Shown here: in pieces, positions 2,615 to 60,565 of the stretch
Layout: each line of letters opens with the position of its first letter
How positions within the stretch are numbered: the first letter of the stretch is position 1
From: Terriglobia bacterium
GTDB taxonomy: Bacteria; Acidobacteriota; Terriglobia; Terriglobales; Acidobacteriaceae
NCBI GenBank assembly: GCA_963779255.1
Contig: CAVZXU010000025.1
Location: forward strand, 67-64,066
Length of the DNA stretch: 64,000 nucleotides
Direction of reading: 5' to 3'
Program-made: the position numbers and the translations under genes
The notes under the pieces: model-generated
Databases searched by the model: none
Told to the model about the DNA's origin: nothing
The model's input: only the letters and a program-made list of their open reading frames with translations

Positions 2615-5600
2615 TTGTTTTCACGTCGAACCTTCTTAAGAGGAATACGGTGGGCGCCTGTACTCTTTCTTCCGGCGCCCTTTCAGACAGCGCCTCTCCG
2701 GCTGCCGCTCTCCGAAACGTCCAGGGCCCGCTCCTCTTCATTCCCCTTCTCTGATTTCCGTCTGACTCCTCGCTATCCCGCGAAGTCCGCGCTCGATGAT
2801 GTTCTGCTGCAAGTTGTTCCGGGCGCGGACGAGTACCTCACCGAGAAGTACGCGTCTGAAATCATGCCACTGCTCAAGCAATGGAGCACAGAGCTCAGGA
2901 CGGCGCCACCCGCGCTCGCCGTCCTGACGAAATTCCTCGATGCCTCTATCGAGGCCGCTGCTCTCCTTCCGACTCGAGAAGTCGTGCAGCGTTCAGGCAA
3001 CGGCATCGAGGTCTTCCGCAGACGTTTCGCGAGGGATGTCATCTCCGGCCGCGAGCGATTTCTGCGCGAGATGGAAAACTATCTGGCCCCGATGTGGCGA
3101 GTGGAGACGGCGGAATTCGAAATCGTTGGGATCAGGGAAATCGCGGGCTCCTCGTCGATGTTCGATATCGACATTCGTTATGACCTGGTCGGCACTCGCA
3201 AGGACGCCGCGCGCGAGCAACGCGTGGGACAATGGCTGACTCGCTGGTCGCGCGATGAAGCTCAGGGCTGGCGCGTGTTGCGCTGGCAGGCGACCGAAGA
3301 GACCCTGGCTCGCGCCCGCGAACCGATTTTCATTGACGTCACGGCCCAGGCCCTCGGCCAGACTGCTTCATACAGAGATCAGATGCTTCGCGGTGTTGAT
3401 CACTGGCGCACCGTGCTCGACGGGGCGTCCGGGATCGACGTTTACGGCAACAATGGCCTGGCCATGGGAGATTTCGACAACGATGGATTTGACGACCTCT
3501 ACGTGTGCCAGCCCGCGGGACTTCCCAACCGCCTCTATCGCAATCGCGGGGATGGCAGCTTCGAGGATGTGACTGAAGCATCGGGAGTCGGCGTGCTCGA
3601 TGACACGGCCTGCGCTTTGTTCGCCGATTTCCGAAACAAGGGAGTTCAGGACCTTCTGGTAGTTTGCGGCGGCGGCCCGTTGCTGTTCCTGAACCAGGGG
3701 AACGGGAAATTCTCGCTTAAGCCCGACGCCTTCAAGTTTGCCCAGCCTCCGCAGGGAACGTTCACCCATGCCGCCGTCGCGGACTACGATCGCGACGGTC
3801 TTCTCGACATCTACTTCTGTCTGTACAGCTATTACGCGGGGCTGGACCAGTATCACTATCCCGTCCCTTACTTCGACGCGCGCAATGGACCGCCAAACTT
3901 TCTGCTGCACAACGAAGGTAACGCAACCTTCAGCGATCGGACTCAGGCTGCGGAACTGAACGTGGATAACGACCGCTACAGTTTCGCCTGCGCCTGGGGC
4001 GATCTCAATTCTGACGGGACACCCGACCTCTATGTGGCCAATGACTTCGGGCGCAGCAATCTCTACCGCAACAACGGAAATGGGACCTTCGCTACCATCT
4101 CGTCTGAGGCAGGCGTTGACGACGTGGGCGCCGGCATGAGCGCGTGCTGGTGCGATTTCGACAACGACGGGAACCAGGACATCTACGTGGCCAACATGTG
4201 GTCCGCTGCCGGCCACCGGGTTTCAGAACAAGAGATCTTCCATGAGAAAGATCCCGAGAACATCCGCGCCCTTTACCGCAGACACGCCCGCGGCAATTCC
4301 CTCTATCGCAATCAGGGCAACGGAAAATTTCAAAACATAAGCGAACAGGTGGGAGCCGAGATGGGCCGCTGGGCCTGGTCCTCCGACGCCTGGGATTTCG
4401 ACCACGATGGCTACCCCGACCTGTACATCGCCAACGGCTATATTTCCGGGCCCGACCCTCGCGATCTCTCCAGCTTCTTCTGGCGGCAGGTGGTGGGAAA
4501 TTCGCCGCAGAATTCGAACCCGTCGTCCAGTTACGAGCAGGGATGGAACGCGATCAACGAAATGATCCGCTCGGATTCTTCCTGGGCCGGCCCCGAGAGA
4601 AATGTTTTTTACGCCAACAACCGTGACGGCACGTTTTCTGACGTCTCCGGCGCAGTTGGTATGGACTTTCCCGACGACAGCCGCTCCTTTGTCCTTGCCG
4701 ACCTCGACCACGACGGACGATTGGAAGTCATCCTCAAGAATCGGACCGCGCCGCAACTGCGGGTGCTGCGCAACGCCATGAAAGATATTGGCCACTCCAT
4801 CGCATTCCGCTTGCGCGGACAAAAAAGCAATCGCGATGCGATCGGCAGTGCGGTCACGGTCGAAGCCGGAGCACTCCGCCAGACAAGATACCTCCAGGCA
4901 GGCTCCGGATTTTTGTCCCAGTACACCAAGGAGATCTTCTTTGGATTGGGGGAAGTCGAGGGCCCTGTCCGCGCCACGGTTCGCTGGCCCAGCGGTCTCA
5001 CGCAGACCTTTGCGAGCTTGCCGGTAAACCGCCGCATCGAAATTGAGGAAGGCTCGAATGACCTTGTGGCGAAGCCCTTTGCGGTATCGCCTCCTTCCTA
5101 TGCGCATGCTGGCGAACTCCAGAAGTTGCAACCTCTGCCATCGTCGGTTGAGACCTGGCTGATCGAGCCCTTGAGCGCACCGGACTTTTCGTTGCCTGAC
5201 CTGGAGGGTAAGACGTGGGACCTGCTGTCGTTCCGCGGCAACTTCCTCCTGCTTAGTTTTTGCTCCACCGCCTCCCGGCCATGCAGAGAACAGATGCGCC
5301 TTTTCCGCCAGGGTAGATCATCCCTTGCTTCTGGCGGCCCTCGCATCGTTGGCATCAACGTGGACGATCCCCGCGATGTGCGGACCGTGCAAACATTCGT
5401 GGCCCAGGAAGGCTTCTCCTTCCCCACACTGCTCGCCACGCAGGACATAGCAGGCGTCTATAACATTGTTTATCGCTACCTGTTCGACCGCCGCCGCGAC
5501 CTCGGCCTGCCCACATCGTTTCTCCTTAATAAGGAAGGCATGATCGTCAAGGTGTACCAGGGGCCGGTGACTGCGGAGCGGCTGCTGGCTGATGTGAAAT

Positions 5601-6424
5601 CGGTCCCGAGCAACTCAGCCGATGGGGTGCGAAGGGCCCTGCCGTTCGCCGGGACGCTTTTCCTGAGCGCGTTCCAGCGCAACGACTTTACTTACGGCGT
5701 TTCCTTTTTTCAGCACGGATATCTCAAGCAGGCGGAAGCGTCCTTCAAGCAGGTCATCGCCGCCAAGCCCGACCGTCCCGAAGCCTTTTACAACCTGGGG
5801 ACGCTGTATCTCAGGAGAAACGCCTTTCCCGACGCGCGCAAATATCTGGAACAGGCGGTAAAGCTGCGTCCGGAGTATCCCGAGGCCTGGAACAATCTCG
5901 GAATGATTGCCGCGAATGAAAATCAGGTGGACGAGGCGGTTCGCAACTTCCAGCAGTCGTTAGAACAGCGGCCAACCTACGCTATCGCGTTGCTGAACCT
6001 TGGCAACCTGTACCGGCGTCAGGGCAACCTGGCGGAAGCGGAGAAGTTTCTGAACCGCGCTCACGAAATTGAACCCGACGACCCCGAGGTCAACTACAAC
6101 CTGGGAATGCTCTACGCCCGCCAAGACCAGACCCAGAGTGCCCAGCAGTATCTCGAACGGGCCGTGAGCGTGCGCCCGGACTATCCCGACGCGCTCAACA
6201 ACCTGGGCGTGCTCTTTGTTCGTGAACAGCGTTATCCGGAAGCGGAGCAAAGATTCAAGACGTGCATTCAGGCGGCCCCCAATTTCGACCAGGCCTACAT
6301 GAATCTGGCCCGCCTTTACGTCATTTTGAATGACAAGGAAAAGGCCAGAGAAGTATTGCTCGCCCTGCTGCGCCAACAGCCGCAGCACAAGATGGCCCAG
6401 CAGGCGCTGGAAATGCTACATTGA
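2615..6424 (+). CDS. Large secreted FG-GAP/VCBS repeat + ASPIC/UnbV protein (CRTAC1-like) fused to a thioredoxin-like (TlpA/redoxin) domain and C-terminal TPR repeats
   Basis: Intact 1269 aa ORF. TTG start with a Tat-like signal MFSRRTFLRG. Repeated GDFDNDGFDDLYV / WCDFDNDGNQDIYVAN / LYRNNGNGTF motifs. UnbV_ASPIC-like block RGQKSNRDAIGSAVTVEAG..YLQAGSGFLSQ. Redoxin-like block DFSLPDLEGKTWDLLSFRGNFLLLSF. About 8 TPR units (AFYNLGTLYLRRN, AWNNLGMIAANEN, and others). Confidence 0.85.
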   Translation: MFSRRTFLRGIRWAPVLFLPAPFQTAPLRLPLSETSRARSSSFPFSDFRLTPRYPAKSALDDVLLQVVPGADEYLTEKYASEIMPLLKQWSTELRTAPPALAVLTKFLDASIEAAALLPTREVVQRSGNGIEVFRRRFARDVISGRERFLREMENYLAPMWRVETAEFEIVGIREIAGSSSMFDIDIRYDLVGTRKDAAREQRVGQWLTRWSRDEAQGWRVLRWQATEETLARAREPIFIDVTAQALGQTASYRDQMLRGVDHWRTVLDGASGIDVYGNNGLAMGDFDNDGFDDLYVCQPAGLPNRLYRNRGDGSFEDVTEASGVGVLDDTACALFADFRNKGVQDLLVVCGGGPLLFLNQGNGKFSLKPDAFKFAQPPQGTFTHAAVADYDRDGLLDIYFCLYSYYAGLDQYHYPVPYFDARNGPPNFLLHNEGNATFSDRTQAAELNVDNDRYSFACAWGDLNSDGTPDLYVANDFGRSNLYRNNGNGTFATISSEAGVDDVGAGMSACWCDFDNDGNQDIYVANMWSAAGHRVSEQEIFHEKDPENIRALYRRHARGNSLYRNQGNGKFQNISEQVGAEMGRWAWSSDAWDFDHDGYPDLYIANGYISGPDPRDLSSFFWRQVVGNSPQNSNPSSSYEQGWNAINEMIRSDSSWAGPERNVFYANNRDGTFSDVSGAVGMDFPDDSRSFVLADLDHDGRLEVILKNRTAPQLRVLRNAMKDIGHSIAFRLRGQKSNRDAIGSAVTVEAGALRQTRYLQAGSGFLSQYTKEIFFGLGEVEGPVRATVRWPSGLTQTFASLPVNRRIEIEEGSNDLVAKPFAVSPPSYAHAGELQKLQPLPSSVETWLIEPLSAPDFSLPDLEGKTWDLLSFRGNFLLLSFCSTASRPCREQMRLFRQGRSSLASGGPRIVGINVDDPRDVRTVQTFVAQEGFSFPTLLATQDIAGVYNIVYRYLFDRRRDLGLPTSFLLNKEGMIVKVYQGPVTAERLLADVKSVPSNSADGVRRALPFAGTLFLSAFQRNDFTYGVSFFQHGYLKQAEASFKQVIAAKPDRPEAFYNLGTLYLRRNAFPDARKYLEQAVKLRPEYPEAWNNLGMIAANENQVDEAVRNFQQSLEQRPTYAIALLNLGNLYRRQGNLAEAEKFLNRAHEIEPDDPEVNYNLGMLYARQDQTQSAQQYLERAVSVRPDYPDALNNLGVLFVREQRYPEAEQRFKTCIQAAPNFDQAYMNLARLYVILNDKEKAREVLLALLRQQPQHKMAQQALEMLH

Positions 6425-6445
6425 GCTTTTGGCACCTGTCTCAAA

Positions 6446-9025
6446 GTGCCCGCGGAGAAACACCGGGAGATGGTCATCGGCGCCTCATTTCAGCATTCAC
6501 GCAGCAACGCGCGCCGCAGGCCTGGACTGGGCCTCATCTTCGCGCTCGCGATCGTTTCCTTTTTTGGTGCAGGGTCGGCGGCGCAGCAATCCCCTCCCGT
6601 CCGGAGCGCCGCCCGGCCAGTTTCGAAAGCCCCATCGCCTTTCCTTGAGGCTGAGACCCTGCTGCGCCAGGGATCTGTCGCCGAAGCAAAAGTGAAAATT
6701 GAGGAGCAACTCAAGCTCAATCCCTCCAGCGTGGAAGGTTACAACTTGCTGGGAATCGCATACGGCAGCGAGAAAGACTATGACAACGCTCTGGAAGCGT
6801 TTCAGCATGCGCTGAAGCTCGATCCCGATTCCGCTCGGACTCATAACAACCTAGGGAACGTTTACGTCGCTCAGGAGAAATTTGACCTGGCGGAAAAAGA
6901 GTTTGGCCAGGTCTTGCGGGTTGATCCCGGCAACCGCGAGGCCAACTACAATCTCGGCCTGGTCCTGATGGCCCGCCGTTTGCCGGCCGAGGCCATTCCT
7001 CACTTCCAACGGGTGCGCCCGGCAGACGTGGCGACTCGTTTCAACCTTGTCCGCGCCTACTTTCAAGCCGGACATACGGCCGAAGGTCTGAGGCTGGCGC
7101 GGGAACTTTCCGCCACGAAGAGAGATGACGTTCAACTGCACTTCACTCTGGGTGTGTTGCTGGCGGGAGCAAAGCAGTACCCGGCGGCTCAACTGGAACT
7201 GGAGAAGGCCAACGCCCTGCAGCCGGAAACTTTTGAGATTCTCTATAACCTCGGGCAGGTCTATCTGCAGAGCGCCGAGTACACGAAAGCGGAACTGGTT
7301 TTGAGCCGGGCACTGAAACTGAAGCCCGATTCACCTGAAACTCTTTACCTGATGGCGCAGGTCTATTCCGAACAGACCAAAGTCAGTGGATGCCCTGGAT
7401 TTCCTGGTGCGCGCCCACAAGCTGGCGCCGGAAAATACTGATGTCATCTTTCTGCTGGCCCGGGTCAGCATGACGCAGAATTATTTTGAGGATGCGATTC
7501 CGCTCCTCGAATCCGGCGTGAAAATCGCCCCGAAGCGGGCCGATCTGCACGCCGCTCTGGGCGAGAGCTATTTCATGTCCGGGAAAGACCGAAAAGGCCA
7601 TCGACGAGTTCAAGTAGCTGATTGAACTGGACCCGTCAGCGCGCTCCTACGTCTTTATGGGACTCTCCTACCGGCATCTGGGACGCTTCGATGAAGCCAA
7701 GAAATATTTCGAGCAGGGGCTCAAACTGGATCCGCACAACCCTTCCTGCCTCTTCAACATGGGATACATCGAGGGACGGCAGGGAAACCAGGCCGCCGCG
7801 GAACGACTCTTCCAGGCTGCGCTCCGCTCGAATCCAGACTTCTCCGACGCGCTGCTGGAGTTGGCGAACCTGCGAATCGCCGATAAGAAATTTGAGGAGG
7901 CGGCGACGCTGCTGCGAAGATATGTGAAGGTCAGCCGCGATCCTGCGGCCGGATATTACAAGCTCGCCATGGTCGAGCGAAGCCTCCATCAGACGGAGGC
8001 GGCGCAGCGGGACTTGAATGTATTTCAGACCCTTTCCAAAGACGCGTCAGCGGGTCCGTATCCTTATCAGCATCTTTTCGATTATCTGGATAACCGCTCC
8101 AACCTTGCGCCTCAGGAGCGCACGCAACTGGATCTGACCGAACTGACGGCTCAGATCCAGAAGCATCCGGACCGCCCGCAAGACCTTTACCTGCTGGCGG
8201 AAGCGTATCTGAAACTGGGAAAGGTCGAGGAAGCCCGCACTACGATCGCGCAACTTGACCAGTTGAGCTCGGGCGACTATCGCACGCAGACCGGAGTAGG
8301 CGTGCTGCTCGCCCGCTTCCACTTGTACGACGACGCCATCCAGCACTTCCAGACGGCGTTGCGCGCCAATCCCGACTCCGACGACATAAAATTCGACCTG
8401 GCCGATGCTTACTTCCGAAAGGGCGCTTACGCCAGGCACTCGAAGCTGCCCAGCAAGTTTCGGCCACAGGTCAGCAGGACGACGGCCTTCCTGGCCCTAC
8501 TCGGAGACATTCACGCTCATCTGGGAGAGACTGCTCGGGCCGCCGAAATCTTCCGCGATGCGATTGCGCAGAAATCCCGACAACGATCAGAATTATCTCT
8601 CGCTCACTCTGGTCGAGCTACGTGAAAACGATGTCGGCGGCGCCAAAGCAGACGCTACAAAAAGGCATGACCCGAATTCCAGGCTCCGGCAAAATCCTCT
8701 GGGGCTTGGGAATTGTCTCGGTGCTCGAAGGCAACACTGTACAAGCCGCCGAACACTGGAACGCGCCGTTGATCTGCTGCCGGAGTGGCCGGGAAGCTAC
8801 TCCACGCTCGGCGTTTTTTACTACCAGACTGGACAAATCGACAAGGCCCGCGAAGTGCTGAACCGTTTCAAGGGCAGCAGCGCCGGCGGCCTGGATGTGA
8901 ATCGGATTGAAGAAGTGCTGTCCGGGCCCCGGCCAAGTCTTCTTCCGCGCAGGAACCCATGTCGATGGCTGCCCGGCAGCAATTACTTCAGCTGGCGCTG
9001 TCTGCTGGCTGACCGGACCCTCTAA
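6446..9025 (+). pseudogene. Secreted TPR-repeat protein broken into at least 5 frame segments
   Basis: A signal-like N-terminus is followed by TPR units (GYNLLGIAYGSEKDY, THNNLGNVYVAQEKF, ANYNLGLVLMARR). The protein continues across ORFs 6446..7441, 7386..7625, 7657..8625, 8622..8861 and 8405..9025, with sensible junctions (for example ..YSEQTKV / DALDFLVRAHKLAP). The 3' end is uncertain. Confidence 0.7.
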
Positions 9026-9148: not shown

Positions 9149-10827
9149 ATGGCCTTCGCAGGCCAAGCCTCCGAAAACAGCAAGCACGACCGCGTGACCG
9201 TCCGTTACACCGACGTTCGACAAGCCGCCGGAATCACTTTCCTTCAGGATGGCACGGCACACCGACGAGAAGTATTACCTGGAAACCATGGGCACCGGCG
9301 TGGCTGGCTCGACTACGATCAGGACGGGCTGATGGATCTGTATTTCGTGCAATCGGCGGCTACCGATATCTACAAGCCACCGCAGCCGCTGCGCTCCGCG
9401 CTTTATCACAACAACGGCGACGGAACTTTTACTGACGTCACGGAAAAGGCCGGCGTGGCAGGTGAGGGACACTACGGGCAAGGGGTTGCCGTCGGCAGAT
9501 TTCGACAACGACGGCTATCCCGACCTCTACGTGACCGGCTACGGCAGCGCCATCCTTTATCACAACAACGGCAACGGAACTTTTACCGACGTCACCGCCA
9601 AGGCCGGAGTCGGCAGATAAAGGTGGATGGTCCGACCAGCGCGGGATGGTTTGACTACGACAAAGATGGATGGCTCGACCTGGTGGTCACCAACTACATC
9701 GAATGGTCGCCGAAGAACAATCTGTGGTGCGGCGAGCGCCGGCCCGGCTACCGTTCCTACTGCCATCCCGGAAACTACAAAGGACAGAGGACCAAGCTCT
9801 ACCACAACAATCATGACGGCACTTTCACCGACGTGAGCGACGCGTCCGGCGTGGGCAAGCCCGAATCCAAGGGAATGGGCGTGGTTCTGGCCGACTTCAA
9901 CAACGACGGCTGGACCGACATCGCCATCGCCAACGATACCTGGCCAAATTTTCTGTTTATCAACAAGCACAACGGAACTTTCGAGGACGTGTCGCTGATC
10001 TCCGGCATGGCAGCGAGCGAGGACGGGCGTTACGAGGCCGGAATGGGCATTGACGCCGCTGACGTTGACGGCGACGGCTGGCAGGACGTCTACGTCACCC
10101 ACCTCGATTTCGAATTGAATCGCCTCTACCACAATAACCACGACGGGACTTTCACTGACGAGACCTTCCGCTCCGGCATTGGAAACAAGGCCGTCCTGCT
10201 GAGCGGCGTGGCCGTGAAGTTTCTGGACTACGACAACGATGGTTGGCCCGACATTCTGCAATTGAACGGCGCCATGCTGGACAACATCCAGCTCTACCAC
10301 GGCGAAGTCTCCTACAAAGAGCCGCTGCTGATGTTCCGGAACCTGGGCAAAGGTAAGTTGGAAAAGGCGTCGGAGTCTTTGGGCCCCGACTTCATACGGC
10401 CCATCGCCGGACGCGGCCTGGCAACCGCCGACTTCGACAATGACGGCGACATCGACATCGCCACCAACAACCGCGGCGATTATCCCTCGCTCCTGCGCAA
10501 CGATGGCGGGAATGCCAACCACTGGCTGGAAGTACTGTTGATCGGGACGAAGTTCCAACCGCGACGGCGTCGGCGCTTCTCTGAAGCTGACCGTCCGAAG
10601 GCTTTATTCACGTGGAACAGGCCAAGGGTGGCATGAGTTACATGTCGGCCAGCGACCCGCGAATCCAGTTCGGACTGGGCAAACGCACAAAGATCGATTC
10701 GCTGGAAATTACGTGGCCGAGCGGACAGGTCGATCGGCTGACGAATGTTCCAATCGATCAGATCATCGCCGTCAAAGAAGGCACAGGAATCGTGCCGCGC
10801 AAATTCCCGAAGGTGCCGAGCAAATGA
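9149..10827 (+). pseudogene. ASPIC/UnbV FG-GAP repeat protein (CRTAC1 family), frameshifted; the 5' end is uncertain
   Basis: [35 protein letters not shown] and ADFDNDGDIDIATNN repeats are present. A frame break near 9497 (GVAVG then [32 protein letters not shown] in another frame) is restored near 9620-9640. There is a second break near 10550-10620. The C-terminus IQFGLGKRTKIDSLEITWPSGQVD is in ORF 10612..10827. Confidence 0.8.
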
Positions 10828-10831
10828 TGAA

Positions 10832-10902
10832 GTCTTCAGTCGGCGGTCGTCAGTCGTCATTGAGGCCGCTTTTCTGAAGACTGAAGACTGACGACTGACG
10901 AT
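10832..10902. repeat. Inverted pair of heptanucleotide tandem arrays (GTCTTCA/GTCGTCA x4, then TGAAGAC/TGACGAC x4)
   Basis: 10832-10859 reads GTCTTCA GTCGGCG GTCGTCA GTCGTCA. 10875-10902 reads TGAAGAC TGAAGAC TGACGAC TGACGAT. The units are reverse complements of each other. The array starts just after the stop codon at 10827 and ends 6 nt before the ATG at 10909. Confidence 0.8.
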
Positions 10903-10908
10903 GCCTTT

Positions 10909-12687
10909 ATGAATCTGCCGCGACGCCAATTCCTGGGTTCCTCCGCTCATCGTCCTCGGCAGCACGCTGCTGGACGCGCTGACTACGCCACTCTGGAAGT
11001 GGAGGAATTCCGCCTCCAGGCGAACCGCCGCCGACTCCGCCGGCTTCCCCAGTCACTTTCGTTGACGTGGCTCGCGAAGCCGGTTTGAACGCTCCCAACG
11101 TCTGGGGCGCAGTCGATCACAAACGCTACATCATCGAAGCCAAAGGCAGCGGCCTGGCCTTCTTCGATTACGACAACGACGGCTGGCTGGACATTTATCT
11201 CACCAACGGCACGCGCCTCGACGCCAACTGGCCGCCGGGCAAGGCGCCAACTTCGCATCTCTACAAAAACAATCGCGACGGCACCTTCACCGACGTCACG
11301 GAAAAATCTGGCCTGGGGCGCACCGGCTGGCAGACCGGCATCTGCGTCGGCGACTATAACAACGACGGCTGGGACGATCTGTTCTGCTGCTTCTGGGGAC
11401 ACAACATCCTGTTCCACAACAACGGCGATGGGACTTTTACCGACGTCACGCGCAAGGCGGGGGTTTACGACGAGCAATACCGCTGGGGGGCCGGCTGCAC
11501 CTGGCTCGATTACGACCGCGACGGGCGCCTCGACCTCTTCGTCTGCAACTACATCAGACTCGATCCGGCGAAAGCCCCTTCCGCCAACGATCCCCTGTGC
11601 CAGTGGAAGGGCATCCCCGTGATGTGCGGCCCCCGCGGCCTGCCCGGCGACACTAACGTGCTGTATCACAACAATGGTGACGGAACTTTCACCGACGTCT
11701 AGCGAGAAATCGGGCATTCTGAAGCCCGGCCCGCGCTATTCCATCACCGCCGTCTCTTATGATTTTGATAACGACGGCTGGCCGGACATTTACGTGGCGG
11801 TGGACTCGCAACCCAGCATGCTGTTCCGCAACAACCACGACGGCACTTTCACCGATATCGCCGTCCTCGCGGGATGCGCTTACAGCGACAATGGCCACGA
11901 GCAGGCCGGCATGGGGGTGGCAGTCGGCGACTATGACTGCGACGGCTGGTTCGACATTTTCAAAACCAACTTCGCCGACGACACTTGCAACCTTTATCAC
12001 AACAACGGCGACGGGACCTTCACCGACGTAACATTTTCATCCGGTATTGGAATCAACAACCGCTACGTCGCCTGGGGCTGCGGCTTCCTCGACTACGACA
12101 ACGATGGCTGGCCCGACCTCATGCAGATCAATGGACACGTCTACCCGGAGATTGAAGGCCACGATATCGGGCAGACGTTCAAGAACCCGCGCCTGCTGTA
12201 CAAGAATCTGGGCAATGGGCGATTCAAAGACGTCTCATCTGAATCCGGCCCGGGCATCACCGAGCTCTTCTCCAGCCGTGGCGCCGCTTTCGGCGACTAC
12301 GATAACGATGGCGACATCGACGCAGTCATTTTGAACATGAATGACTTACCGTCGCTGCTGCGCAACGACGGTGGCAACCTGCAGAATTGGATCAAGATCA
12401 AGCTGATCGGCACCAAATGCAATCGCACCGCCATCGGCGCCCGGGTGCGCGTGGTGACCGGCAACCATACCCAGATGGATGAAGTCCACAGCGGCTCCAG
12501 CGTGATGTCGCAGTGCGATCTGCGCCTTCACTTCGGCCTGGGCAAGGCCCAAACCGTGGATGTCATCGAAGTGAGGTGGCCGACGACACAGAAGATCGAA
12601 CGCTTCACTCAAGTGAAGGCCAACCAGATACTCACGATTCGTGAAGGCAGCGGCATCGTCGAGACGGTCAAACCCAAAGCCAAATAG
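10909..12687 (+). pseudogene. Second ASPIC/UnbV FG-GAP repeat protein (CRTAC1 family), frameshifted
   Basis: ATG with a Tat-like signal MNLPRRQFLGSSA, then a frame break before ORF 11067..11702 ([36 protein letters not shown]). An extra T near 11700 creates TAG and shifts into ORF 11674..12687. The latter has a UnbV_ASPIC-like tail (GTKCNRTAIGARVRVVTG..SGSSVMSQ). Confidence 0.8.
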
Positions 12688-15581: not shown

Positions 15582-16510
15582 GCGTATTCCTCCCGCACTC
15601 CCGCTTTGTGCTTGCTAAGAAACAATGCCTGAGACAAACGGTGAAGCAGGAAAACAAGCGCCAGCGAGCCGGCAAAGATAAGCCATCCTGAAAGCAGGTG
15701 GAGCGTTCCTTGCGCGCCCTCAATGCCCCAGTATTCCACCACCACCCCGGTAATGGCGATCCGCAGCGCATTGGCCAGGACTGAAATTGGGACCGCGATC
15801 AAAACCAGCAGTACCCGCACGCTAATTTTCGCTTCCGCCAGATACCCGTAGATGACCGTAAGCGTAATCAGCGAGAACAGCGATCGGATTCCACTGCATG
15901 CCTCCGCCACCTCCAGCTGCGCTGTGGGAAGAAGAATGATGTTGCCCTCCCGCACCGCCGGAATTCCCACCAGCATCAGCAGGAAACTCGCGGTCTTGGA
16001 GGCAACAATCTGAAGCGGAAGGGTGATCTGCCCCAACAGTGTCGAGGAGGGGATCATCAGGATGAGAAATGCCAGCGGAAACGAAATCGCTGCCAGGTGT
16101 TTCCATCCGGCCATAAAGACAACCAGGCCAGTGATAAAAAGTAGGCACGATATGCGGTACAGAAAGAAGCCTGAATTGATCTTGCTCAGCACCAATGCCA
16201 ACAAGGCAAACAATAGAATCACCAGACCCGACCAGGCCGGCTGGCGGCGGAGCGCTGCCAATTTGGCGCGCCTCTCCCAAAGCAAGAACAGGGAGAATGC
16301 CGGAACAAAGAAACCATGAGTGTAGTTCGGGTCGTGCCACCACTGGCTTGCCAGGCCGAGCGCAAGCGGGGCGTACAGCCAGGCGGCCAAAAGAAAGAGG
16401 GTTACGCCTTGAGCGTAAACCAGGGCGCTGGTTTTCAGGAAACCGGTTTTCCGGAAAACAGGTTTCGGGAAAAAGGTTTTCAGGAGACTGGGATTGGAAA
16501 CACTAAGCAT
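15578..16510 (-). CDS. Exosortase family protein
   Basis: Polytopic membrane protein with the exosortase signatures WWHDPNYTHGFFVPAFSLFLLW, EVAEACSGIRSL (active-site Cys) and ANALRIAITG. ATG at 16510; a GTG at 16531 is also possible. Confidence 0.85.
   Translation of the reverse strand: MLSVSNPSLLKTFFPKPVFRKTGFLKTSALVYAQGVTLFLLAAWLYAPLALGLASQWWHDPNYTHGFFVPAFSLFLLWERRAKLAALRRQPAWSGLVILLFALLALVLSKINSGFFLYRISCLLFITGLVVFMAGWKHLAAISFPLAFLILMIPSSTLLGQITLPLQIVASKTASFLLMLVGIPAVREGNIILLPTAQLEVAEACSGIRSLFSLITLTVIYGYLAEAKISVRVLLVLIAVPISVLANALRIAITGVVVEYWGIEGAQGTLHLLSGWLIFAGSLALVFLLHRLSQALFLSKHKAGVREEYA
16430..16489. repeat. Four tandem ~15 nt units, each an internal palindrome (GGTTTTCNGGAAAAC)
   Basis: GGTTTTCAGGAAACC / GGTTTTCCGGAAAACA / GGTTTCGGGAAAAA / GGTTTTCAGGAGACT. 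The array lies in the 5' end of the exosortase ORF, where it encodes the pentapeptide repeat ..KTFFPKPVFRKTGFLKTS. Confidence 0.75.
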
Positions 16511-31326: not shown

Positions 31327-31793
31327 CGTAAGCTGGCAGTCTGGTGCGACGTTGGAATCTTTTTGAGAACGCCGACTTCCTTCCGTTACTCACTTATTCG
31401 CCCTTACACGACGTAGGTATTGGGTCGAGAAAAAGACTCCGAATACGATGGCAGGAAAAAGAATCGCGACAATAGGAGGGGAGGAGGGAGTTAGAAATCA
31501 GGCCAAAGGCAGGTGTCGCTTCTATATATAGAAGCATTACCGAAAACCCATCTCCCGTCCACGCACAACCCACGACCCAATCTCGCAGAATCCGCGTCCC
31601 GCGCGCATTGCACGAAGAACAGGCACTTTCGTGCCATTGCCTACCCCTCTCTGCGGGCGGAGAATGCCTGCGCGAAAGAGTCCTGAGGGGCGTCGCGGTC
31701 AACCAGCTCGACGGTACCCCTCCAACATCAACGCCACTTCACACGCGGCCGAGCTATATCGGCCGCCTTCTTATTTGCCCAGGCTCCGCCCAA

Positions 31794-31858
31794 ACTCCCA
31801 GCTCCTAACTCCCAGCTCCCAACTCAACTCCCAGCTCCCCAACAACTCCCAACTCAAG
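31794..31858. repeat. Heptanucleotide tandem array (CTCCCAG/CTCCCAA type, ~9 units, slightly irregular)
   Basis: CTCCCAG CTCCTAA CTCCCAG CTCCCAA CTCAA CTCCCAG CTCCCCA ACAA CTCCCAA CTCAAGA. Confidence 0.75.
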
Positions 31859-31976: not shown

Positions 31977-32550
31977 ATGCCCAGCAAAACCGCAGAACCA
32001 GTTCAGATTTACCAGCTCAAGGTCATCCTTCGCGGCGCACACAAACCCATCTGGCGTCAGTTACAGGTAAAAAGCGACATCACCCTCGCCAAACTCCACC
32101 GCATTCTGCAAACCGTCATGGGTTGGACGAACACCCACCTCCACCGGTTCCTCATCCGGGGCGCGCAATACGAGATGCCCGATGAGGGCGACGTGGTTCT
32201 GCGCAAGATGATCGACGGGCGCAAACAACAGGCTCAGCGATGTCGTCTCGGGTCAAGCCTCGCGGTTTATTTACGAGTACGATTTCGGCGACGGGTGGCA
32301 GCACGAGCTCCTCGTCGAAGACATTCTTTCCCCGGAGGCAGGGTGCGGTATCCGGTTTGCCTTGCGGGCGCCCGCGCTTGTCCACCCGAAGACGTAGGCG
32401 GAGCACTCGGTTACCAGAGCTTGCTGGAGGCGATCCATAACCTAAATCATCCGCAGCATGACGAATACCTGGAATGGATCGGGGACGGTTTTCGACCCCG
32501 AGGCGTTCCACGTGGACGAGGTCAATCGGAAACTGCGCCAGCTGAAGTAA
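31977..32550 (+). pseudogene. pRiA4b ORF-3-like (PF07929) protein, at least 3 frameshifts
   Basis: IYQLKVILRGAHKPIWRQLQV..TLAKLHRILQTVMGWTNTHLHRF. The expected YEYDFGDGWQHELLVEDIL lies in another frame (ORF 32240..32440 region), followed by YPVCLAGARACPPEDVGGALGY. The tail DPEAFHVDEVNRKLRQLK-stop ends at 32550. Confidence 0.7.
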
Positions 32551-32805
32551 TTAGAGCCAATCGCCCGAACCCACTAAGGCCGCTCACCCCGGTCCTTTTT
32601 TGAAAAGCGTTTTTTGAAAAGCGTCTTGACGCGCGACGAGTCTCAGGCGTACGATTTTGTCGCCCTGGGTAAGCACGAAGGGAATAGCGGGTTCGAGGAT
32701 GAAAGGCCCGCAGCGTACCTGTGCTTCGGCACGTTAATCGCGCCTCATTGTGCTACCCAGGTTTTTTTGTTTCGGGCTGAGGAACTCCCACGACTGTTTC
32801 CAGAC

Positions 32806-32990
32806 AAAAAGCCCGACCACATCGGGCTTTTTGGCAACACCATCACGCAAAATCCGCGACCCAGACCTCACGAAAAACTCGCGACCCAATCACACAAAAT
32901 TCGATACCCATCTCCTCGCCTTCTTCCCAGGGTAGCCAGCACCCCACCCGCTCAAGGTCCGTATTTCCCAAAGCCCGCCTACGGCGGGCT
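32806..32990. repeat. Copy A of a ~180 bp repeat unit containing a bidirectional terminator hairpin
   Basis: AAAAAGCCCGAccacaTCGGGCTTTTT at 32806-32832. Two CGCAAAATCCGCGACCC-type motifs lie at 32846-32862 and 32871-32887. A 48 nt block at 32912-32959 matches 34037-34084 at 46 of 48 positions. Confidence 0.75.
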
Positions 32991-40275: not shown

Positions 40276-41148
40276 TTGCTGAGTGATTTTGCGCCCCGCT
40301 TTCTGGCGTGGCTTGAATCCAGCCACCTTACGCACGGAACCCGGCGCTACTACCGAGTCGGTTGGGGCATGATTCGCCGCACCCGGCTCATACATATGAA
40401 GGTCAACCGCATCACTTCCGACGAAGCCTGGGCGGCAAACTTTCCCGGATCACCTTCCGCCGTCAACAATGCGCTCCGCACGCTCCATCGGATGCTGAGC
40501 AAGGCTGTGGAATGGAAAGTCATCACCCGGACTCCCAAGATTCATCTGGCAAAGGAAGTGGGACGTTCCCAGCTCATGAACCCTGAAACCGAAGCCAAAC
40601 TGCTTTCGGTTGCCGATCAGCCGCTGCGGGATGTGATCATGATCATGCAGGACGGAGGAATGCGACCCGCCGAGGTGTTCAGAATGTCTATTGAGCACAT
40701 CGACTGGCAGCGAAACACCATCTTTGTCCCCTTTGGCAAAACCAGAAACTCGCGCCGTTTCGTTCCCATGAGCGAGCGGGTGATGAAAGCTCTGATGGTG
40801 CGAGTCGCAGATCGTTCGGAGGGCTGGGTATTCCCGTCCAAGCGTTCACGATCCGGCCACATCGAGACGGTTGAAAAGCTGTTCCTGGATGCACGCGGCA
40901 AGGCTGGATTGGGTGACGATGTGGTCCTGTACTCCGCCCGTCACACTTTCTGCACCTACGCGCTTGAAGAAACCGGAAACCTGGCAGCCTTGATGAAGGT
41001 GGCGGGTCATGCCGACGTCAAGACGGCCATGAAGTATCAACACCCAGAGACGAATTCCATTCGAGAAGCTATCGAGAGACGGAATCGGAATCAATGTCAC
41101 AATTCACGTCACAGCCCGGCGGAGAACGACGGCAAGTGGTCGAATTGA
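40276..41148 (+). CDS. Tyrosine recombinase / phage-type integrase
   Basis: MRPAEVFRM..W..IFVPFGKTRNSRRFVPMS.. and LYSARHTFCTYALEETGNLAALMKVAGHADVKTAMKYQH carry the R..HxxR..Y signature. The start is TTG; the N-terminal domain looks short. Confidence 0.85.
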   Translation: MLSDFAPRFLAWLESSHLTHGTRRYYRVGWGMIRRTRLIHMKVNRITSDEAWAANFPGSPSAVNNALRTLHRMLSKAVEWKVITRTPKIHLAKEVGRSQLMNPETEAKLLSVADQPLRDVIMIMQDGGMRPAEVFRMSIEHIDWQRNTIFVPFGKTRNSRRFVPMSERVMKALMVRVADRSEGWVFPSKRSRSGHIETVEKLFLDARGKAGLGDDVVLYSARHTFCTYALEETGNLAALMKVAGHADVKTAMKYQHPETNSIREAIERRNRNQCHNSRHSPAENDGKWSN

Positions 41149-41149
41149 T

Positions 41150-41224
41150 TGGTAGCGCTAACGGGAATCGAACCCGTGTTTGAAGATTGAGAATCTTCCG
41201 TCCTAACCCCTAGACGATAGCGCC
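41150..41224 (-). tRNA. tRNA-Glu (anticodon CUC)
   Basis: GGCGCUA UC GUCU AGGGGUUA GGAC G GAAGA UUCUCAA UCUUC AAAC ACGGG UUCGAUU CCCGU UAGCGCU A CCA. It folds by hand into a full cloverleaf, with a G1-U72 wobble and an encoded CCA. Confidence 0.9.
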
Positions 41225-41246: not shown

Positions 41247-41488
41247 AAGCAAAACAGGCAAGGCCGTCCTGGGTAGCGCCGGCCTCTGGCCGGCCCGATG
41301 GGCGGGCGGGGACGTCAGCCAGAAAGCCGGCGGGGCGGCGGCGCTACGTTGTCGCCTGCCAGGCAATCACCTTATCTCTTGACAATATTCCCCTCCTGGA
41401 GCTAATTTCGTTTAGAGAATAAAAAGCGAAAGTGCGATTTGCAGCCTCGGCCAGCCGCCCCGGCGTTTCCCTGAAATTGAGGTCCTTA

Positions 41489-42424
41489 ATGTCCTCCCCA
41501 CTCTTTTACGCCCCGGCGGGCGGCGCGGTTGTCTTTACTGCAAAGAAGGAACCGACGCTGGTTTTACAACGGCTGGCGGCAATGCCCAAGCTGGCGGGGG
41601 TGACGGCGGCATCGCGGCTGGAGGTACGGCCTACGCCGGAGATGGTCTCCAGCGGAATTCGCGAGCTTGATGAGCTTGCCGGCGGGCTTCCACGGGGATG
41701 TTTGAGCGAGATTTGTGGACCAGCCTCTTCCGGACGCACCAGCGTGTTGCTGGCTGCCCTGGCAGCAGCTACCCGGCGCCAGGAAGTCTGTGCCCTGGTG
41801 GACACCACGGACGCGCTCGATGCGGTCTCGGCTGCAGCAGCGGGAGTTGAGCTGGAAAGATTGCTGTGGATACGCTGCGGGCGGGCGCCGGGCGCCGGAC
41901 CTCAGACCTCGGGCGTCAGCCCTCAGACCCCAGGAACGAAATTCGAAGTGCGGAACCCCAGGTCCGAGGCCCGAAGTCCGATGTCTGAAGTCCGACGTCC
42001 GACGCCCGAGGTCCGGTCTCTCGAGCAGGCGCTGCGAGTTACTGATCTGCTTTTGCAAAGTGGGGGCTTTGGCCTGGTGGCCATTGATCTCGGCGATGTG
42101 CCGGACGCGGCCGCGCGGCGGATTCCACTGGCTTCCTGGTTTCGCTTTCAGCGTGCCGTCGAACCCACTGCCACGGTGCTATTGGTGGTGGCCCAGGCGC
42201 CCTGCGCTCTGACTTGCGCTTCTCTGCTGATCAGGCTGCGGACCGGGAAACAGCTTTCAGCTATCAGCTCTCAGCTTTCAGTTAAAAGCGAACTTTCGCT
42301 GGCCCACGTGCAACTTCTGGATGGATTGCGCGTTGAAGGAGAGCTGCTGCGTTCGCGCATGCAGAGAAAACCGACACAATCCGTCACCGCGGTTTTCGCC
42401 ACAAAAGCGGTGCGGATTGCGTAG
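41489..42424 (+). CDS. imuA: ImuA-like (RecA/SulA-fold) translesion-synthesis accessory protein carrying repeat-derived insertions
   Basis: SSGIRELDELAGGLPRGCLSEICGPASSGRTSVLLAALAAA..VCALVDTTDALD..GVELERLLWIRCG. ATG at 41489 follows GAGG; a GTG at 41432 is possible. Confidence 0.7.
   Translation: MSSPLFYAPAGGAVVFTAKKEPTLVLQRLAAMPKLAGVTAASRLEVRPTPEMVSSGIRELDELAGGLPRGCLSEICGPASSGRTSVLLAALAAATRRQEVCALVDTTDALDAVSAAAAGVELERLLWIRCGRAPGAGPQTSGVSPQTPGTKFEVRNPRSEARSPMSEVRRPTPEVRSLEQALRVTDLLLQSGGFGLVAIDLGDVPDAAARRIPLASWFRFQRAVEPTATVLLVVAQAPCALTCASLLIRLRTGKQLSAISSQLSVKSELSLAHVQLLDGLRVEGELLRSRMQRKPTQSVTAVFATKAVRIA
41896..42014. repeat. Inverted pair of heptanucleotide arrays (CNGACCT type, then GANGTCC type), in frame inside imuA
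   Basis: 41896-41937 reads CGGACCT CAGACCT CGGGCGT CAGCCCT CAGACCC CAGGAAC. 41966-42014 reads GAGGCCC GAAGTCC GATGTCT GAAGTCC GACGTCC GACGCCC GAGGTCC. The outer ends are complementary (ccggacctc..gaggtccgg). Confidence 0.8.
42251..42285. repeat. Heptanucleotide array CAGCTNT x4-5, in frame inside imuA
   Basis: CAGCTTT CAGCTAT CAGCTCT CAGCTTT CAGTTAA, encoding ..QLSAISSQLSVK.. Confidence 0.75.
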
Positions 42425-42560
42425 TCCCACGGCAGCACCTTCGATTGCGCTCGGACAGGCGTTGCCGGTTGCATCTTGCTTTTTGCTGCGAGGGCGAGAC
42501 GCCCCTCGTGACAGCCGGCGGGACGCCGGCGCTACAAGCTGAGTGCTGATAGCTTTTCTC

Positions 42561-42588
42561 TGACGACCGACGACTGATGACTGATGAC
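42561..42588. repeat. Heptanucleotide array TGACGAC/TGATGAC x4, containing the imuB start codon
   Basis: TGACGAC CGACGAC TGATGAC TGATGAC. The ATG at 42584 lies inside the last unit. Confidence 0.75.
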
Positions 42589-44193: not shown

Positions 44194-44249
44194 CGGACGT
44201 CGGGCCTCGGACCTCGGACCTCGGATGTTGGACCCCGGACGGTGGACCT
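44194..44249. repeat. Heptanucleotide array CGGACCT type x8
   Basis: CGGACGT CGGGCCT CGGACCT CGGACCT CGGATGT TGGACCC CGGACGG TGGACCT. It starts 6 nt after the imuB stop and is the reverse complement of the GAGGTCC-type array at 41966-42014. Confidence 0.8.
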
Positions 44250-44687: not shown

Positions 44688-45212
44688 CTATTTCGTGATT
44701 ACGCCGCAGGCAATGCGGTCACCCGCGTTTCCGGCCGGGTCGGACTTCATGTCATCCGCCTTGGCATGAATCACCAGCGCCGTGCCGCCGTTGCCGAACA
44801 GGGAGTGGCTGTCGTCGCCCAGAGTTACGTCCTTGTTCACCACTTTGTACTTGGCTTTGCCCTTGGCGTTTACGGTGAAGTTGTTCATGTCCCCGGCGTG
44901 GTGGCCTTCGGGATTCTCCAGGCCATGCTTCTTTCCCTCGGGATTAAAGTGCGGGCCGGCCGATTTGAAATCCGGCGCGTCGCATTGCGCCTTCTGGTGA
45001 AAGTGCAAAGCGTGCACCCCGGGCGGAAGGTCGTGCAGTTTGAGCTCTATGGACACGCCCGACGATGCTCCCTTGCTCCATAGCACCGCCGTTCCCACGC
45101 TCTTGCCCTGCGCGTCTTTCAGTTCGACCGTAGTCTTGGCAGCTGCTGCGATCGACAGGGCGAAGAACGAACACAATCCGATGGCAAGTAAGAATGGCTT
45201 GGCGATTTTCAT
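44688..45212 (-). CDS. sodC: Periplasmic Cu/Zn superoxide dismutase
   Basis: Signal MKIAKPFLLAIGLCSFFALSIAAA. HALHFHQKAQC..GPHFNP..HHAGDMNNF..ALVIHAKADD..AGNAGDRIACGVI. Confidence 0.9.
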   Translation of the reverse strand: MKIAKPFLLAIGLCSFFALSIAAAAKTTVELKDAQGKSVGTAVLWSKGASSGVSIELKLHDLPPGVHALHFHQKAQCDAPDFKSAGPHFNPEGKKHGLENPEGHHAGDMNNFTVNAKGKAKYKVVNKDVTLGDDSHSLFGNGGTALVIHAKADDMKSDPAGNAGDRIACGVITK

Positions 45213-45430
45213 AGCTTGGCAATTATAAACGCTACAGCCTCTGCAAGTCGCCCCGTGCACTTCTACGCGCGGGCACAGTTTGAAATCTGCGCCGGCGTCA
45301 TCCTGAACGGCCTTTAGGCCATGAAGGATCTGGCACGCAGCAGTACAATTCCGGCCAACGTAATATCTGCTACACGCCAGATGCTTCGCAAGCTCAGCAT
45401 GACGCTGTCGCCGAGCGAGGCTGGGTATCG

Positions 45431-59794: not shown

Positions 59795-59795
59795 G

Positions 59796-59851
59796 CAGTC
59801 GTCAGTTGCCGATCCTCAGTCGTCAGGGCGGTGACCGACGACGACGACCGA
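59796..59851. repeat. Degenerate heptanucleotide array (CAGTCGT type, then GACGACG type)
   Basis: CAGTCGT CAGTTGC CGATCCT CAGTCGT CAGGGCG GTGACCG ACGACGA CGACCGA. It starts 2 nt after the LOG stop codon and covers the annotated 5' end of thiE. Confidence 0.65.
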
Positions 59852-60549: not shown

Positions 60550-60560
60550 AGACCGACGAC
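60540..60560. repeat. Heptanucleotide array TGAAGAC x2 + CGACGAC, containing the thiE stop codon
   Basis: TGAAGAC TGAAGAC CGACGAC. The TGA at 60547-60549 lies inside the second unit. The reverse complement CAGTCGTCGGT matches CAGTCGTCAGT at 59796. Confidence 0.7.
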
Positions 60561-60565
60561 TGCCT

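Follow-up and report, generated by a model that had tools for sequence, protein, structure and literature searches.

What are the short runs of near-identical heptamers found in an acidobacterial genome, and why do they gather in one operon? The question comes from a 64,000-nucleotide stretch of DNA from a Terriglobia bacterium (NCBI GenBank assembly GCA_963779255.1, contig CAVZXU010000025.1, positions 67 to 64,066 of the forward strand), called the window below, in which a preliminary description listed eight loci of heptamer arrays, the first of them an inverted pair at 10832-10902. Our analysis shows that the arrays are real, active microsatellites and that four of the eight loci fall in a single operon, imuA-imuB, which encodes mutasome accessory proteins. 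Across relatives, arrays of 7- or 8-nucleotide (nt) units are 30 to 200 times denser in the imuA-imuB(-dnaE2) cassette, where they reach 1 to 6 per kb, than in its flanks. The arrays had been presented as a family of the window and of the genome; an even spread of such a family is not borne out by the concentration of half of the loci in imuA-imuB and the density of 0.03 per kb in the flanks of relatives. The operon clustering, which is the main feature, and the in-frame translation of two of the loci (41896-42014 and 42251-42285) had been overlooked.

Heptamer arrays in the mutasome operon

Tandem Repeats Finder (TRF), run on the window at a minimum score of 30, reported 11 rows of period 7, compared with 1.18 expected from 50 dinucleotide shuffles. 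Multiples of this period were also in excess (period 14, 6 rows versus 0.34; period 21, 2 versus 0), and the periods adjoining 7 stayed close to the shuffle expectation. The period-7 arrays lie at 10831-10859, 10874-10898, 31793-31839, 41898-41933, 41962-42015, 42251-42281, 42560-42590, 44194-44249, and 60539-60562; the array at 31793 runs on to 31855 as periods 14 and 19. TRF thereby confirmed seven of the eight listed loci, while the remaining one, 59796-59851, is below the TRF threshold and is a degenerate remnant seen by eye. Each array holds 3 to 9 units that differ at one or two positions, and each unit is built from six fairly fixed bases and one free base. We distinguish four unit families, namely, A [TGA(A/C)GAC], B (CGGACNT), C (CAGCTNT), and D [A(A/G)CTCCC], which agree with the types recognized earlier (TGAAGAC/TGACGAC, CGGACCT, CAGCTNT, and CTCCCAG). 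The arrays are not assembly artefacts, since short-read and long-read assemblies made independently carry them at orthologous positions.

All arrays and genes described in this operon are on the + strand. The imuA-like gene (41489-42424) encodes a RecA-fold protein with a Pfam RecA match over residues 70-145 only, and imuB (42584-44188) encodes a catalytically inactive Y-family polymerase homologue with a match to the Pfam IMS family at residues 7-150. Three arrays are translated in frame inside imuA. Two of them are the family B arms of a hairpin in the imuA linker: the left arm at 41882-41933 (CGGGCGC/GGACCTC/AGACCTC..., found by TRF, with orthologous arms in 36 loci) translates as ...GAGPQTSGVSPQTPG and the right arm at 41962-42015 [(GANGTCC)n, 7.7 copies by TRF] as ...RSEARSPMSEVRRPTPEVR, the pair reading GAGPQTSGVSPQTPG...SEARSPMSEVRRPTPEVRS overall. 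The third is a family C array in the C-terminal part of imuA (42251-42281, CAGCTTT CAGCTAT CAGCTCT CAGCTTT CAG, 4.4 copies by TRF), translated as QLSAISSQLS. The end of the spacer before imuB is filled by a reverse-complement family C partner (AAGCTGAGTGCTGATAGCTTTT, 42536-42557), which can pair with 42254-42281, and by a family A leader array (CT CTGACGA CCGACGA CTGATGA CTGATGA CTG, 42558-42590, found by TRF). The leader has no Shine-Dalgarno (SD) motif, and its last unit supplies the start codon of imuB (ATG, 42584-42586). A single family B array of about eight CGGACNT units (44194-44249, TRF periods 7 and 14) starts 6 nt after the imuB stop codon and has no fold (z +0.6).

To place the operon among its relatives, we used 80 loci from a scan of species-representative genomes, all from Terriglobia or Acidobacteriota metagenome-assembled genomes (MAGs), making 81 with the window. 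Their imuA is followed by imuB in 81 of 81 loci and by dnaE2 in 36; the product of this third cassette gene is identified as DnaE2 by its PHP, pol III alpha, finger, HhH, and OB domains. Homologues of ImuA, with lengths of 292-349 amino acids (aa) and identities of 75-97%, are without exception from Terriglobales or Terriglobia MAGs, and their lengths differ exactly at the array, where they carry 7-residue peptide repeats. In the 1.44 Mb of relatives, TRF found 334 period-7 rows versus about 32 in shuffles and 145 period-8 rows versus about 31. The claim that imperfect heptamer tandem arrays exist here thus holds against shuffled sequence both in the window and in its relatives.

Densities were calculated for compartments defined by gene spans set by tblastn; a home-made gene caller, which covered 77% of the DNA and mis-set starts, served only to sort arrays into those inside and those outside open reading frames (ORFs). 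The two spacers are the densest compartments, with 5.9 period-7 arrays per kb between imuA and imuB and 6.0 between imuB and dnaE2 (1.8 and 2.3, respectively, for period 8). The values for periods 7 and 8 are 1.73 and 0.24 per kb in imuA, 1.5 and 0 in the 200 nt downstream of the cassette, 0.52 and 0.43 in dnaE2, and 0.02 and 0.21 in imuB, compared with 0.03 and 0.01 in 1.14 Mb of flanks. TRF showed no cassette enrichment in the relatives for periods 6, 9, and 10. The dnaE2 arrays lie within three lineage-specific insertions that are missing from Granulicella and Burkholderia DnaE2, and the plasmid cassettes of Burkholderia, Sinorhizobium, Ralstonia, Acetobacter, Gemmatirosa, and Granulicella tundricola, a set that takes in Proteobacteria and Gemmatimonadota, have none. 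The flanks themselves hold 35 period-7 arrays versus 12-18 in shuffles, which is 2 to 3 times chance, and 29 arrays of at least 24 nt versus 5-10. There is thus a low genome-wide excess, and it is made of intergenic arrays much like the one at 10831-10901.

Other unit lengths were seen in some of the relatives. In 12 loci the imuA-imuB spacer has arrays of period 11, whose density there is 1.45 per kb compared with 0.01 per kb in the flanks. A distant group (L041-L079) carries octamer arrays, (CACAGAGN)3 and its reverse complement (CTCTGTGN)3, in frame across imuA, imuB, and dnaE2 and also in the spacers; examples are L048 10413-10436, 12643-12665, 12745-12767, and 15513-15535 and L051 4093-4116 and 4160-4182. 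In this group the unit CACAGAGN is reused at several sites per operon and in both orientations.

Turnover of units, reading frame, and inverted pairs

How stable are these arrays? The NCBI MAG contig GCA_054312135.1 (L087) is syntenic with the window and 98.7% identical to it over 9.35 kb, a distance in which only seven indels separate the two sequences. Arrays hold the three longest of them (9, 7, and 7 nt): the 9-nt indel is in frame in the left arm in imuA, and the two 7-nt indels affect the reverse-complement family C array (at 42537, seen against L088 as well) and the family B array after imuB (at 44205). A further relative (L001) shows a 14-nt difference in the family A leader. The change of copy number in 7-nt steps between strains, for which the preliminary description had proposed to look, is therefore real for the non-coding arrays that distinguish the window from its 98.7%-identical counterpart. 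Substitutions between these two sequences concentrate in the hairpin arm. The low divergence of imuB, one of the least diverged segments, rules out hypermutation of the whole cassette.

Over larger distances the array sites persist, at ImuA identities of 55-97%, and the unit sequence changes. In the window's group the imuA linker holds (GGACNTC)n plus (GANGTCC)n; the distant group has one (CACAGAGN)3 octamer array there, which encodes SPQRHRDTEK; and in L040 and L050 the linker is unrelated. Likewise, one site in DnaE2 holds units of GGTCGTT, AGCAGTC, or AGTTTCG at the same offset, depending on the lineage. In an alignment of 28 orthologues, the column entropy of the family C array peaks at columns 21, 28, 35, and 42, which are codon positions 3, 1, 2, and 3. 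Because the peaks recur at each seventh base at any codon position, the pattern tracks the nucleic acid unit and not the protein. Third codon positions within the array, the free base excluded, vary less than the surrounding third positions.

The reading frame of imuA is single across the array region in 79 of the 81 loci. In the comparison of the orthologous linker arrays, region lengths are multiples of three by construction, since both anchor motifs were required in one frame. Frame breaks in the cassette are few, and most belong to loci whose cassette genes are broken more than once, which suggests consensus errors or decay. In one relative (L032) a stop codon lies in frame within the hairpin array of imuA (..RTQV*RPTF.., about 10391-10525); this locus may be a pseudogene or an allele in the off state, or the stop may be an error of the consensus. 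A structure prediction of ImuA (AlphaFold, 23-sequence alignment) gave a predicted local distance difference test (pLDDT) score of 31, unusable for the linker.

The arrays had also been described as often occurring together with their reverse complement. This arrangement exists, and its frequency was overstated: in the window and the 80 loci, an inverted partner lies within 120 nt of 106 of 408 arrays, about a quarter, and a direct partner within this distance of 2. In the window, the sequences at 10826-10906 (z -3.2) and 41879-42019 (z -3.6) form long hairpins and that at 59792-59856 does so weakly (z -2.0), whereas the loci at 31794, 42251, 42561, 44194, and 60540 are single and lack a significant fold. 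The imuA hairpin at 41879-42019 (dG -72.8) is made of 6-bp segments parted by 1x1 mismatches at the free base. Its orthologues have z below -2 in 33 of 38 cases, with a median of -5.3, and their apex lies at 0.41-0.58 of the region at region lengths of 78-189 nt. A central apex at all lengths means that the two arms lengthen and shorten together. A wobble test on the sense strand of the imuA hairpin found 172 G.U pairs, not above the 235 A.C mismatches, and thus no sign of upkeep for pairing in the mRNA. Because G.U pairs do not exceed A.C mismatches, a process at the DNA level, such as template switching or arm-to-arm conversion, fits the imuA hairpin better than selection for mRNA pairing does. 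At gathering thresholds Rfam returned tRNA-Glu only and no family that matches the arrays.

Start codons, origin of the arrays, and probable effects on translation

The arrays stand in a particular position at start codons. Of the 79 loci listed, most have the ATG of imuB directly behind a sense-strand array that bears TGA, with units of CTGACGA, AGCTGAN, or the 8-mers TGAGTCAA/TGAATCAA. Stop codons are present in all three frames of the last 30 nt before imuB in 28 of these 79 loci and in two frames in most others; by its sequence, a perfect (CTGACGA)3 carries stop codons in all three forward frames. In the window, the starts at 10909, 42584, and 59854 have an abutting array. Perfect (CTGACGA)3 is present on at least 120 metagenome contigs with GC contents of 0.35-0.71, and among 82 metagenome (CTGACGA)n arrays with enough flank, an ATG-initiated ORF of at least 100 aa starts between -10 and +30 nt in 15 cases in the sense and in 3 in the antisense orientation. 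Since heptamer over-representation is known in many bacteria and (CTGACGA)3 is found on so many contigs, heptamer arrays of this kind are neither cyanobacterium specific nor Acidobacteria specific.

The family C array offers a second link to imuB initiation. In the window, the duplex between this array and its reverse-complement partner has a predicted energy of -33.3 kcal/mol (z -4.6). Among 56 loci, the duplex has z below -3 in 24, reaches up to 31 bp and -56 kcal/mol, and is present in both subclades; it ends 1-40 nt before the imuB ATG. Its ratio of G.U pairs to A.C mismatches is 20:10, which comes from few related loci and is suggestive only. As one arm lies inside the imuA ORF, a ribosome on imuA would open the helix. 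A helix with one arm in the upstream ORF is the classical arrangement for translational coupling, and we hypothesize that the family C helix couples the translation of imuB to that of imuA.

What process would create such arrays and keep them there? We think it reasonably likely that they are microsatellites made by slippage and template switching that survive where they are tolerated, with a probable effect on expression. Slippage as the origin of the arrays is well supported, whereas the origin of the inverted arms by template switching is what we infer; a cis-regulatory effect on translation is probable by analogy with other repeats. Whole 7-nt units are gained and lost, in the manner of slipped-strand mispairing. 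Within genes, arrays are met with only where they stay in frame, are free of stop codons, and lie in loops or linkers; they give low-complexity peptides in the imuA linker, the C-terminal part of imuA, and the three DnaE2 insertions. The fixed sites in the cassette have been occupied since before the sampled Terriglobia genomes diverged, while unit sequence and unit length (7 or 8) turned over. Inverted partners may stem from intrastrand template switching across a nascent hairpin, and the same process would equalize the arm lengths. At the start codons of imuB and of at least three other genes in the window, TGA-bearing sense arrays hold the usual SD position and may thus set and, via unit changes, tune translation initiation, and the pairing of the family C array in imuA with its reverse complement upstream of imuB would couple the translation of the two genes. 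It is doubtful whether SD-less leaders and helices made of slippage-prone units go as far as setting the level of the error-prone polymerase, by which lineages could tune or toggle damage-induced mutagenesis.

Several points weigh against this explanation. A neutral model of slippage and tolerance does not predict a 30- to 200-fold concentration in one operon, and in-frame arrays are almost completely lacking in about 1,000 flanking genes. The upkeep of array structure at the same sites over ImuA identities of 55-97% speaks for some selection or continual regeneration. The 80 loci are orthologous, so that the cassette arrays are inherited sites and not independent samples; even allowing for this, about 10 array sites in a 6.5-kb cassette are far above the background of 0.03 per kb. 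The regulatory part is reasoned by analogy. The 3 of 79 loci in which an SD-like motif precedes imuB are an absolute count, not one relative to SD usage in these genomes. More than half of the loci lack the family C pairing or have only a short form of it.

The hairpins and helices could instead be selected RNA structures that restrain or coordinate the mutagenic polymerase, with the imuA and dnaE2 hairpins attenuating translation or marking sites of RNase cleavage and the family C helix hiding imuB initiation. We regard this as possible but somewhat doubtful. The strongly non-random hairpins (median z -5.3), the 106 inverted versus 2 direct partners, the unusually conserved synonymous sites of family C, and the family C duplex (up to 31 bp, 1-40 nt before the imuB ATG, both subclades, G.U to A.C 20:10) would all be expected of such structures; the imuA hairpin with its 172 G.U pairs versus 235 A.C mismatches on the sense strand would not, nor would the distant group, which has one octamer array and no hairpin at the imuA linker site, the more than half of loci that have no convincing family C partner, or the lack of an Rfam match. 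Selection could also act on the protein, if the heptapeptide repeats (GPRTSDL, SEVRGPT, and QLSAISS) served ImuA and DnaE2 as functional flexible linkers or as motifs for interaction, with the periodicity of the DNA as a by-product. The inserts do sit at loops or linkers between conserved domains and persist in the clade, but conservation tracks the 7-nt unit with the free base on codon positions 1, 2, and 3 in turn, at one and the same site the peptides of different lineages are wholly unlike, non-coding spacers contain the same units, and the structure prediction is uninformative (pLDDT 31), which together make a peptide function improbable as the cause.

Unit lengths of 7 and 8 nt suggest a further role, that of contingency loci in which the change of one unit flips the frame of imuA or dnaE2 and toggles damage-induced mutagenesis in the population. 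Cassette enrichment is indeed confined to non-multiples of three (7 and 8, and 11 in the spacer) and not seen for 6 or 9; units that are not multiples of three lie inside the imuA, imuB, and dnaE2 ORFs; near-identical genomes differ by unit-step indels; and there is a stop codon in the imuA array of L032, with some dnaE2 frame breaks near array sites. Switching of this kind is nonetheless very unlikely. The units are imperfect and neighbours usually differ, which suppresses slippage, and there is no long perfect tract; the imuA frame is single in 79 of 81 loci, although consensus assemblies cannot exclude minority alleles; the sole coding indel seen between close relatives has 9 nt and leaves the frame intact; family C has about four units in almost all loci; and frame breaks fall mostly in loci with multiple breaks that point to consensus errors or decay. 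The exact coincidence of the hotspot with the genes of an error-prone polymerase complex, together with the local concentration of indels and substitutions in the arrays, could mean that the arrays are self-made, with error-prone synthesis by ImuA-ImuB-DnaE2 near its own induced operon leaving duplications and template-switch inversions. This is unlikely in view of the array-free plasmid cassettes of Burkholderia, Sinorhizobium, Ralstonia, Acetobacter, Gemmatirosa, and Granulicella and of imuB, which is among the least diverged segments of an operon that is not hypermutated as a whole; we found no published tandem-duplication signature of DnaE2. If a small mobile palindrome of the type of the Rickettsia palindromic elements or of a miniature inverted-repeat transposable element (MITE) were inserting in genes and spacers, it would account for hairpins that are in frame and translated inside ORFs and for the presence of the same unit families at several sites in and outside the cassette. 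Such an element is scarcely credible where there is no conserved core, no defined termini, unrelated loops, and an arm length that varies by units, where many arrays are single, and where one site holds different unit families by lineage.

Known repeat systems and the other loci of the window

Are these arrays members of a known repeat class? They had been likened to the short tandemly repeated repetitive (STRR) sequences of heterocystous cyanobacteria, whose units include CCCCAGT, TTGGTCA, and CAACAGT. The resemblance to the STRRs of Calothrix, Anabaena, and Nostoc is fair and lies in tandem 7-nt units, several families per genome, short arrays, and a location mostly outside genes. Unlike STRRs, the arrays described here have other unit sequences, occur in Acidobacteriota, are imperfect in the 6+1 manner, form inverted pairs in a quarter of cases, are in many cases in frame, and concentrate in one operon. 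We reject membership in the STRRs, as the units (TGAMGAC, CGGACNT, CAGCTNT, and ARCTCCC) match none of these STRR units and the close homologues are all from Terriglobia/Acidobacteriota and not from heterocystous cyanobacteria.

Ogata and colleagues are said to have described, in 2000, palindromic elements of Rickettsia that are inserted in frame in protein genes. Like the arrays, they are hairpin-forming DNA within ORFs that leaves the frame intact and is translated, in Rickettsia into surface segments. The Rickettsia elements are homologous copies of a defined mobile element, whereas here we see arrays of units with variable arm length and no conserved core. A MITE or a Rickettsia-type element was rejected as a class for the arrays on account of unrelated loops, variable arm length, and the replacement of unit families at the same site. 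Repeat-number switching is known from mutL in Salmonella. Repeats of 7 bp upstream of hmw1A in Haemophilus influenzae tune or switch expression (PMC8262952, PMC12721329). In the arrays too, a change of unit number near a start codon or in a mutation-rate gene could alter output. The hmw1A and mutL repeats are perfect and demonstrably hypervariable, whereas the units here are imperfect and known from sequence alone.

Heptameric simple-sequence repeats are over-represented in many bacteria, according to a passage in PMC4692102 that cites Mrazek 2007, and are known in Xanthomonas, Beggiatoaceae, Bacteroidetes, and cyanobacteria (PMC4692102, PMC4679880). The window arrays share the two marks of heptameric microsatellites, over-representation of period 7 and whole-unit changes between close relatives. 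Intergenic arrays of heterogeneous heptamers have been described whose length varies among close relatives and which now and then form inverted pairs (PMC4692102). These GGGAATC and GGGGA(C/T)T heptamers of Xanthomonas and Nostoc, for which polymerase slippage is the proposed origin (PMC4692102), resemble our arrays in their intergenic location, conserved and variable positions, length variation at conserved sites, and occasional inverted pairs. They differ in their G-runs, which our arrays lack, and neither in-frame coding arrays nor an operon hotspot is described for them. A G-quadruplex reading of our arrays was discarded, as no family has GGG on either strand except sporadically.

A second relevant precedent is the TAACTGA repeats that stand immediately upstream of SD-less start codons (PMC4679880). 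Family A (CTGACGA/CTGAAGA/CTGATGA) is like them in its CTGA core and its forward orientation a few nt from SD-less starts. It may also be like them in the stop codons that it gives in the forward frames, which close all three frames before imuB in 28 of 79 loci. Reverse and related units of TAACTGA give peptides of the LSxIS(Y/S)Q type, and family C gives QLSAISSQLS. The units here are GC-richer and heterogeneous and have inverted partners, and they lie mostly in a mutagenesis operon, whereas the TAACTGA repeats are spread over about 170 genes. We exclude family A from the TAACTGA family, since CTGA(C/A/T)GA has only the CTGA core in common with it.

Two further distinctions made in the preliminary description proved correct. 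Repetitive extragenic palindromic (REP) sequences and bacterial interspersed mosaic elements (BIME) consist of a 20- to 40-nt GC-rich imperfect palindrome repeated as a unit (PMC3733652), from which the tandem 7-mers are distinct; separate REP-like hairpins adjoin them at 42487-42535. CRISPRs have repeats of 23-50 nt with unique spacers, and the units here are 7 nt long and head to tail. The suspicion that there is no acidobacterial precedent also agrees with our literature search, which found no description of such arrays in Acidobacteria and nothing on such repeats in imuA, imuB, or dnaE2. Heptamer repeats are thus already known, and their association with a mutasome operon appears new; what is new is a hotspot specific to one operon, arrays that are translated in frame, and symmetric hairpins built from units.

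For decades heptamer microsatellites have been recorded in bacteria with no role assigned to them. The present sites allow a comparison across about 80 species, and what is conserved is the site, the repetitiveness, the inverted symmetry, and the start-codon position, not the unit sequence, the unit length, or the peptide. Unexpectedly, the sites lie in and between the genes of an SOS-type mutagenesis cassette, which in other bacteria drives damage-induced mutation and the evolution of drug resistance. If the arrays modulate the cassette, a dominant soil phylum would control its mutation rate by means of hypermutable DNA. Otherwise they would represent a striking natural case of proteins that tolerate translated microsatellite hairpins and a good system for studying the origin of inverted repeat arrays.

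The window loci outside the mutasome operon, all on the + strand, show similar features on a smaller scale. The intergenic inverted pair that had served as the example of a long imperfect hairpin (10832-10859 against 10875-10902) does fold: the hairpin at 10826-10906 has dG -34.1 and z -3.2, with a 1x1 mismatch each 7 nt. Its left arm (10831-10859; TRF period 7, 4.1 copies) has four units, GTCTTCA/GTCGNCN/GTCGTCA, that are the reverse complement of family A and starts 4 nt past the stop codon at 10825-10827. The right arm, a family A sense array (10874-10901; TRF period 7, 3.6 copies, 94% matches), reads CTGAAGA CTGAAGA CTGACGA CTGACGA and ends 7 nt before the ATG at 10909 (MNLPRRQF... in the ORF list). 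A CRTAC1/ASPIC-UnbV plus FG-GAP type region (9149-11702) flanks this hairpin on both sides and is split into the overlapping ORFs 9149-10636, 10612-10827, 10909-11088, and 11067-11702, which suggests frameshifts or pseudogenes.

The single family D array (31793-31858; AACTCCC/AGCTCCC, about nine units, TRF periods 7, 14, and 19) is intergenic, C-rich, and unstructured (z +0.2) and sits 3' of a GC hairpin with a T-run, 119 nt upstream of a gene of the PRiA4_ORF3 family (31977-32603, Pfam). The weak degenerate inverted pair at 59796-59853 (CAGTCGT CAGTTGC ... / CCGACGA CGACGA CCGA), found by eye with units that are degenerate TCGTCAG and CCGACGA (59796-59851), folds at 59792-59856 with z -2.0. 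It fills the gap from the stop codon of a LOG-family gene (59792-59794) to the probable start of thiE, TTG 59854; in the long ORF the Pfam TMP-TENI domain starts with residue 19, 2 residues past this TTG. Farther on, a family A array (60539-60562; CTGAAGA CTGAAGA CCGACGA CTG, 3.4 copies by TRF) supplies with its second TGA (60547-60549) the stop codon of thiE in the ORF list; a convergent gene ends at 60566, 4 nt beyond the array, which has no significant fold with downstream sequence (z +0.2).

The surroundings of imuA and imuB hold other features. The REP-like hairpins at 42487-42535 in the imuA-imuB spacer are two, adjacent and GC-rich (GCGAGGGCGAGACGCCCCTCG and GCCGGCGGGACGCCGGCGCTAC), and are kept in many relatives, separate from the heptamer arrays yet consistently adjoining them; a similar GC-rich block lies upstream of imuA at about 41270-41348. 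Both the hairpins and the block are at the same positions in L001-L040. A tyrosine recombinase gene (40276-41148, + strand) abuts a tRNA-Glu(CTC) gene (41150-41224, - strand) directly upstream of imuA, and the region from about 22 to 40 kb has the low coding scores and short ORFs expected of an integrated element. A sigma-70-like promoter candidate (TTGACA, 18 nt, TAATTT) is found about 75-105 nt upstream of the imuA ATG, within 41370-41430. SOS control of the mutasome cassette is assumed from other bacteria; with one mismatch allowed, the LexA box GTTC-N7-GTTC has 59 matches versus 59.9 expected and none between the tRNA gene and the imuA start. In L087, a gene for a 99-aa OmpA-family protein was called directly 3' of imuB (4970-5269); its equivalent in the window is the ORF from 44253 to about 44550, and the array at 44194-44249 is just upstream of it. 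An ORF of 932 aa (44688-47486, - strand) joins TPR repeats to a Cu/Zn superoxide dismutase domain in the window, where L087 has separate genes (5397-7854); two 1-nt indels (45667 and 45950) distinguish the two versions. Other repeats reported by TRF in the window are a 15-mer with 3.7 copies (16430-16485), the 14-mer TTTTTTGAAAAGCG with 2.1 copies (32596-32629), a 25-mer with 3 copies (32842-32910), and (CCGGCT)x5.5 inside the ORF of a TPR protein (57875-57907).

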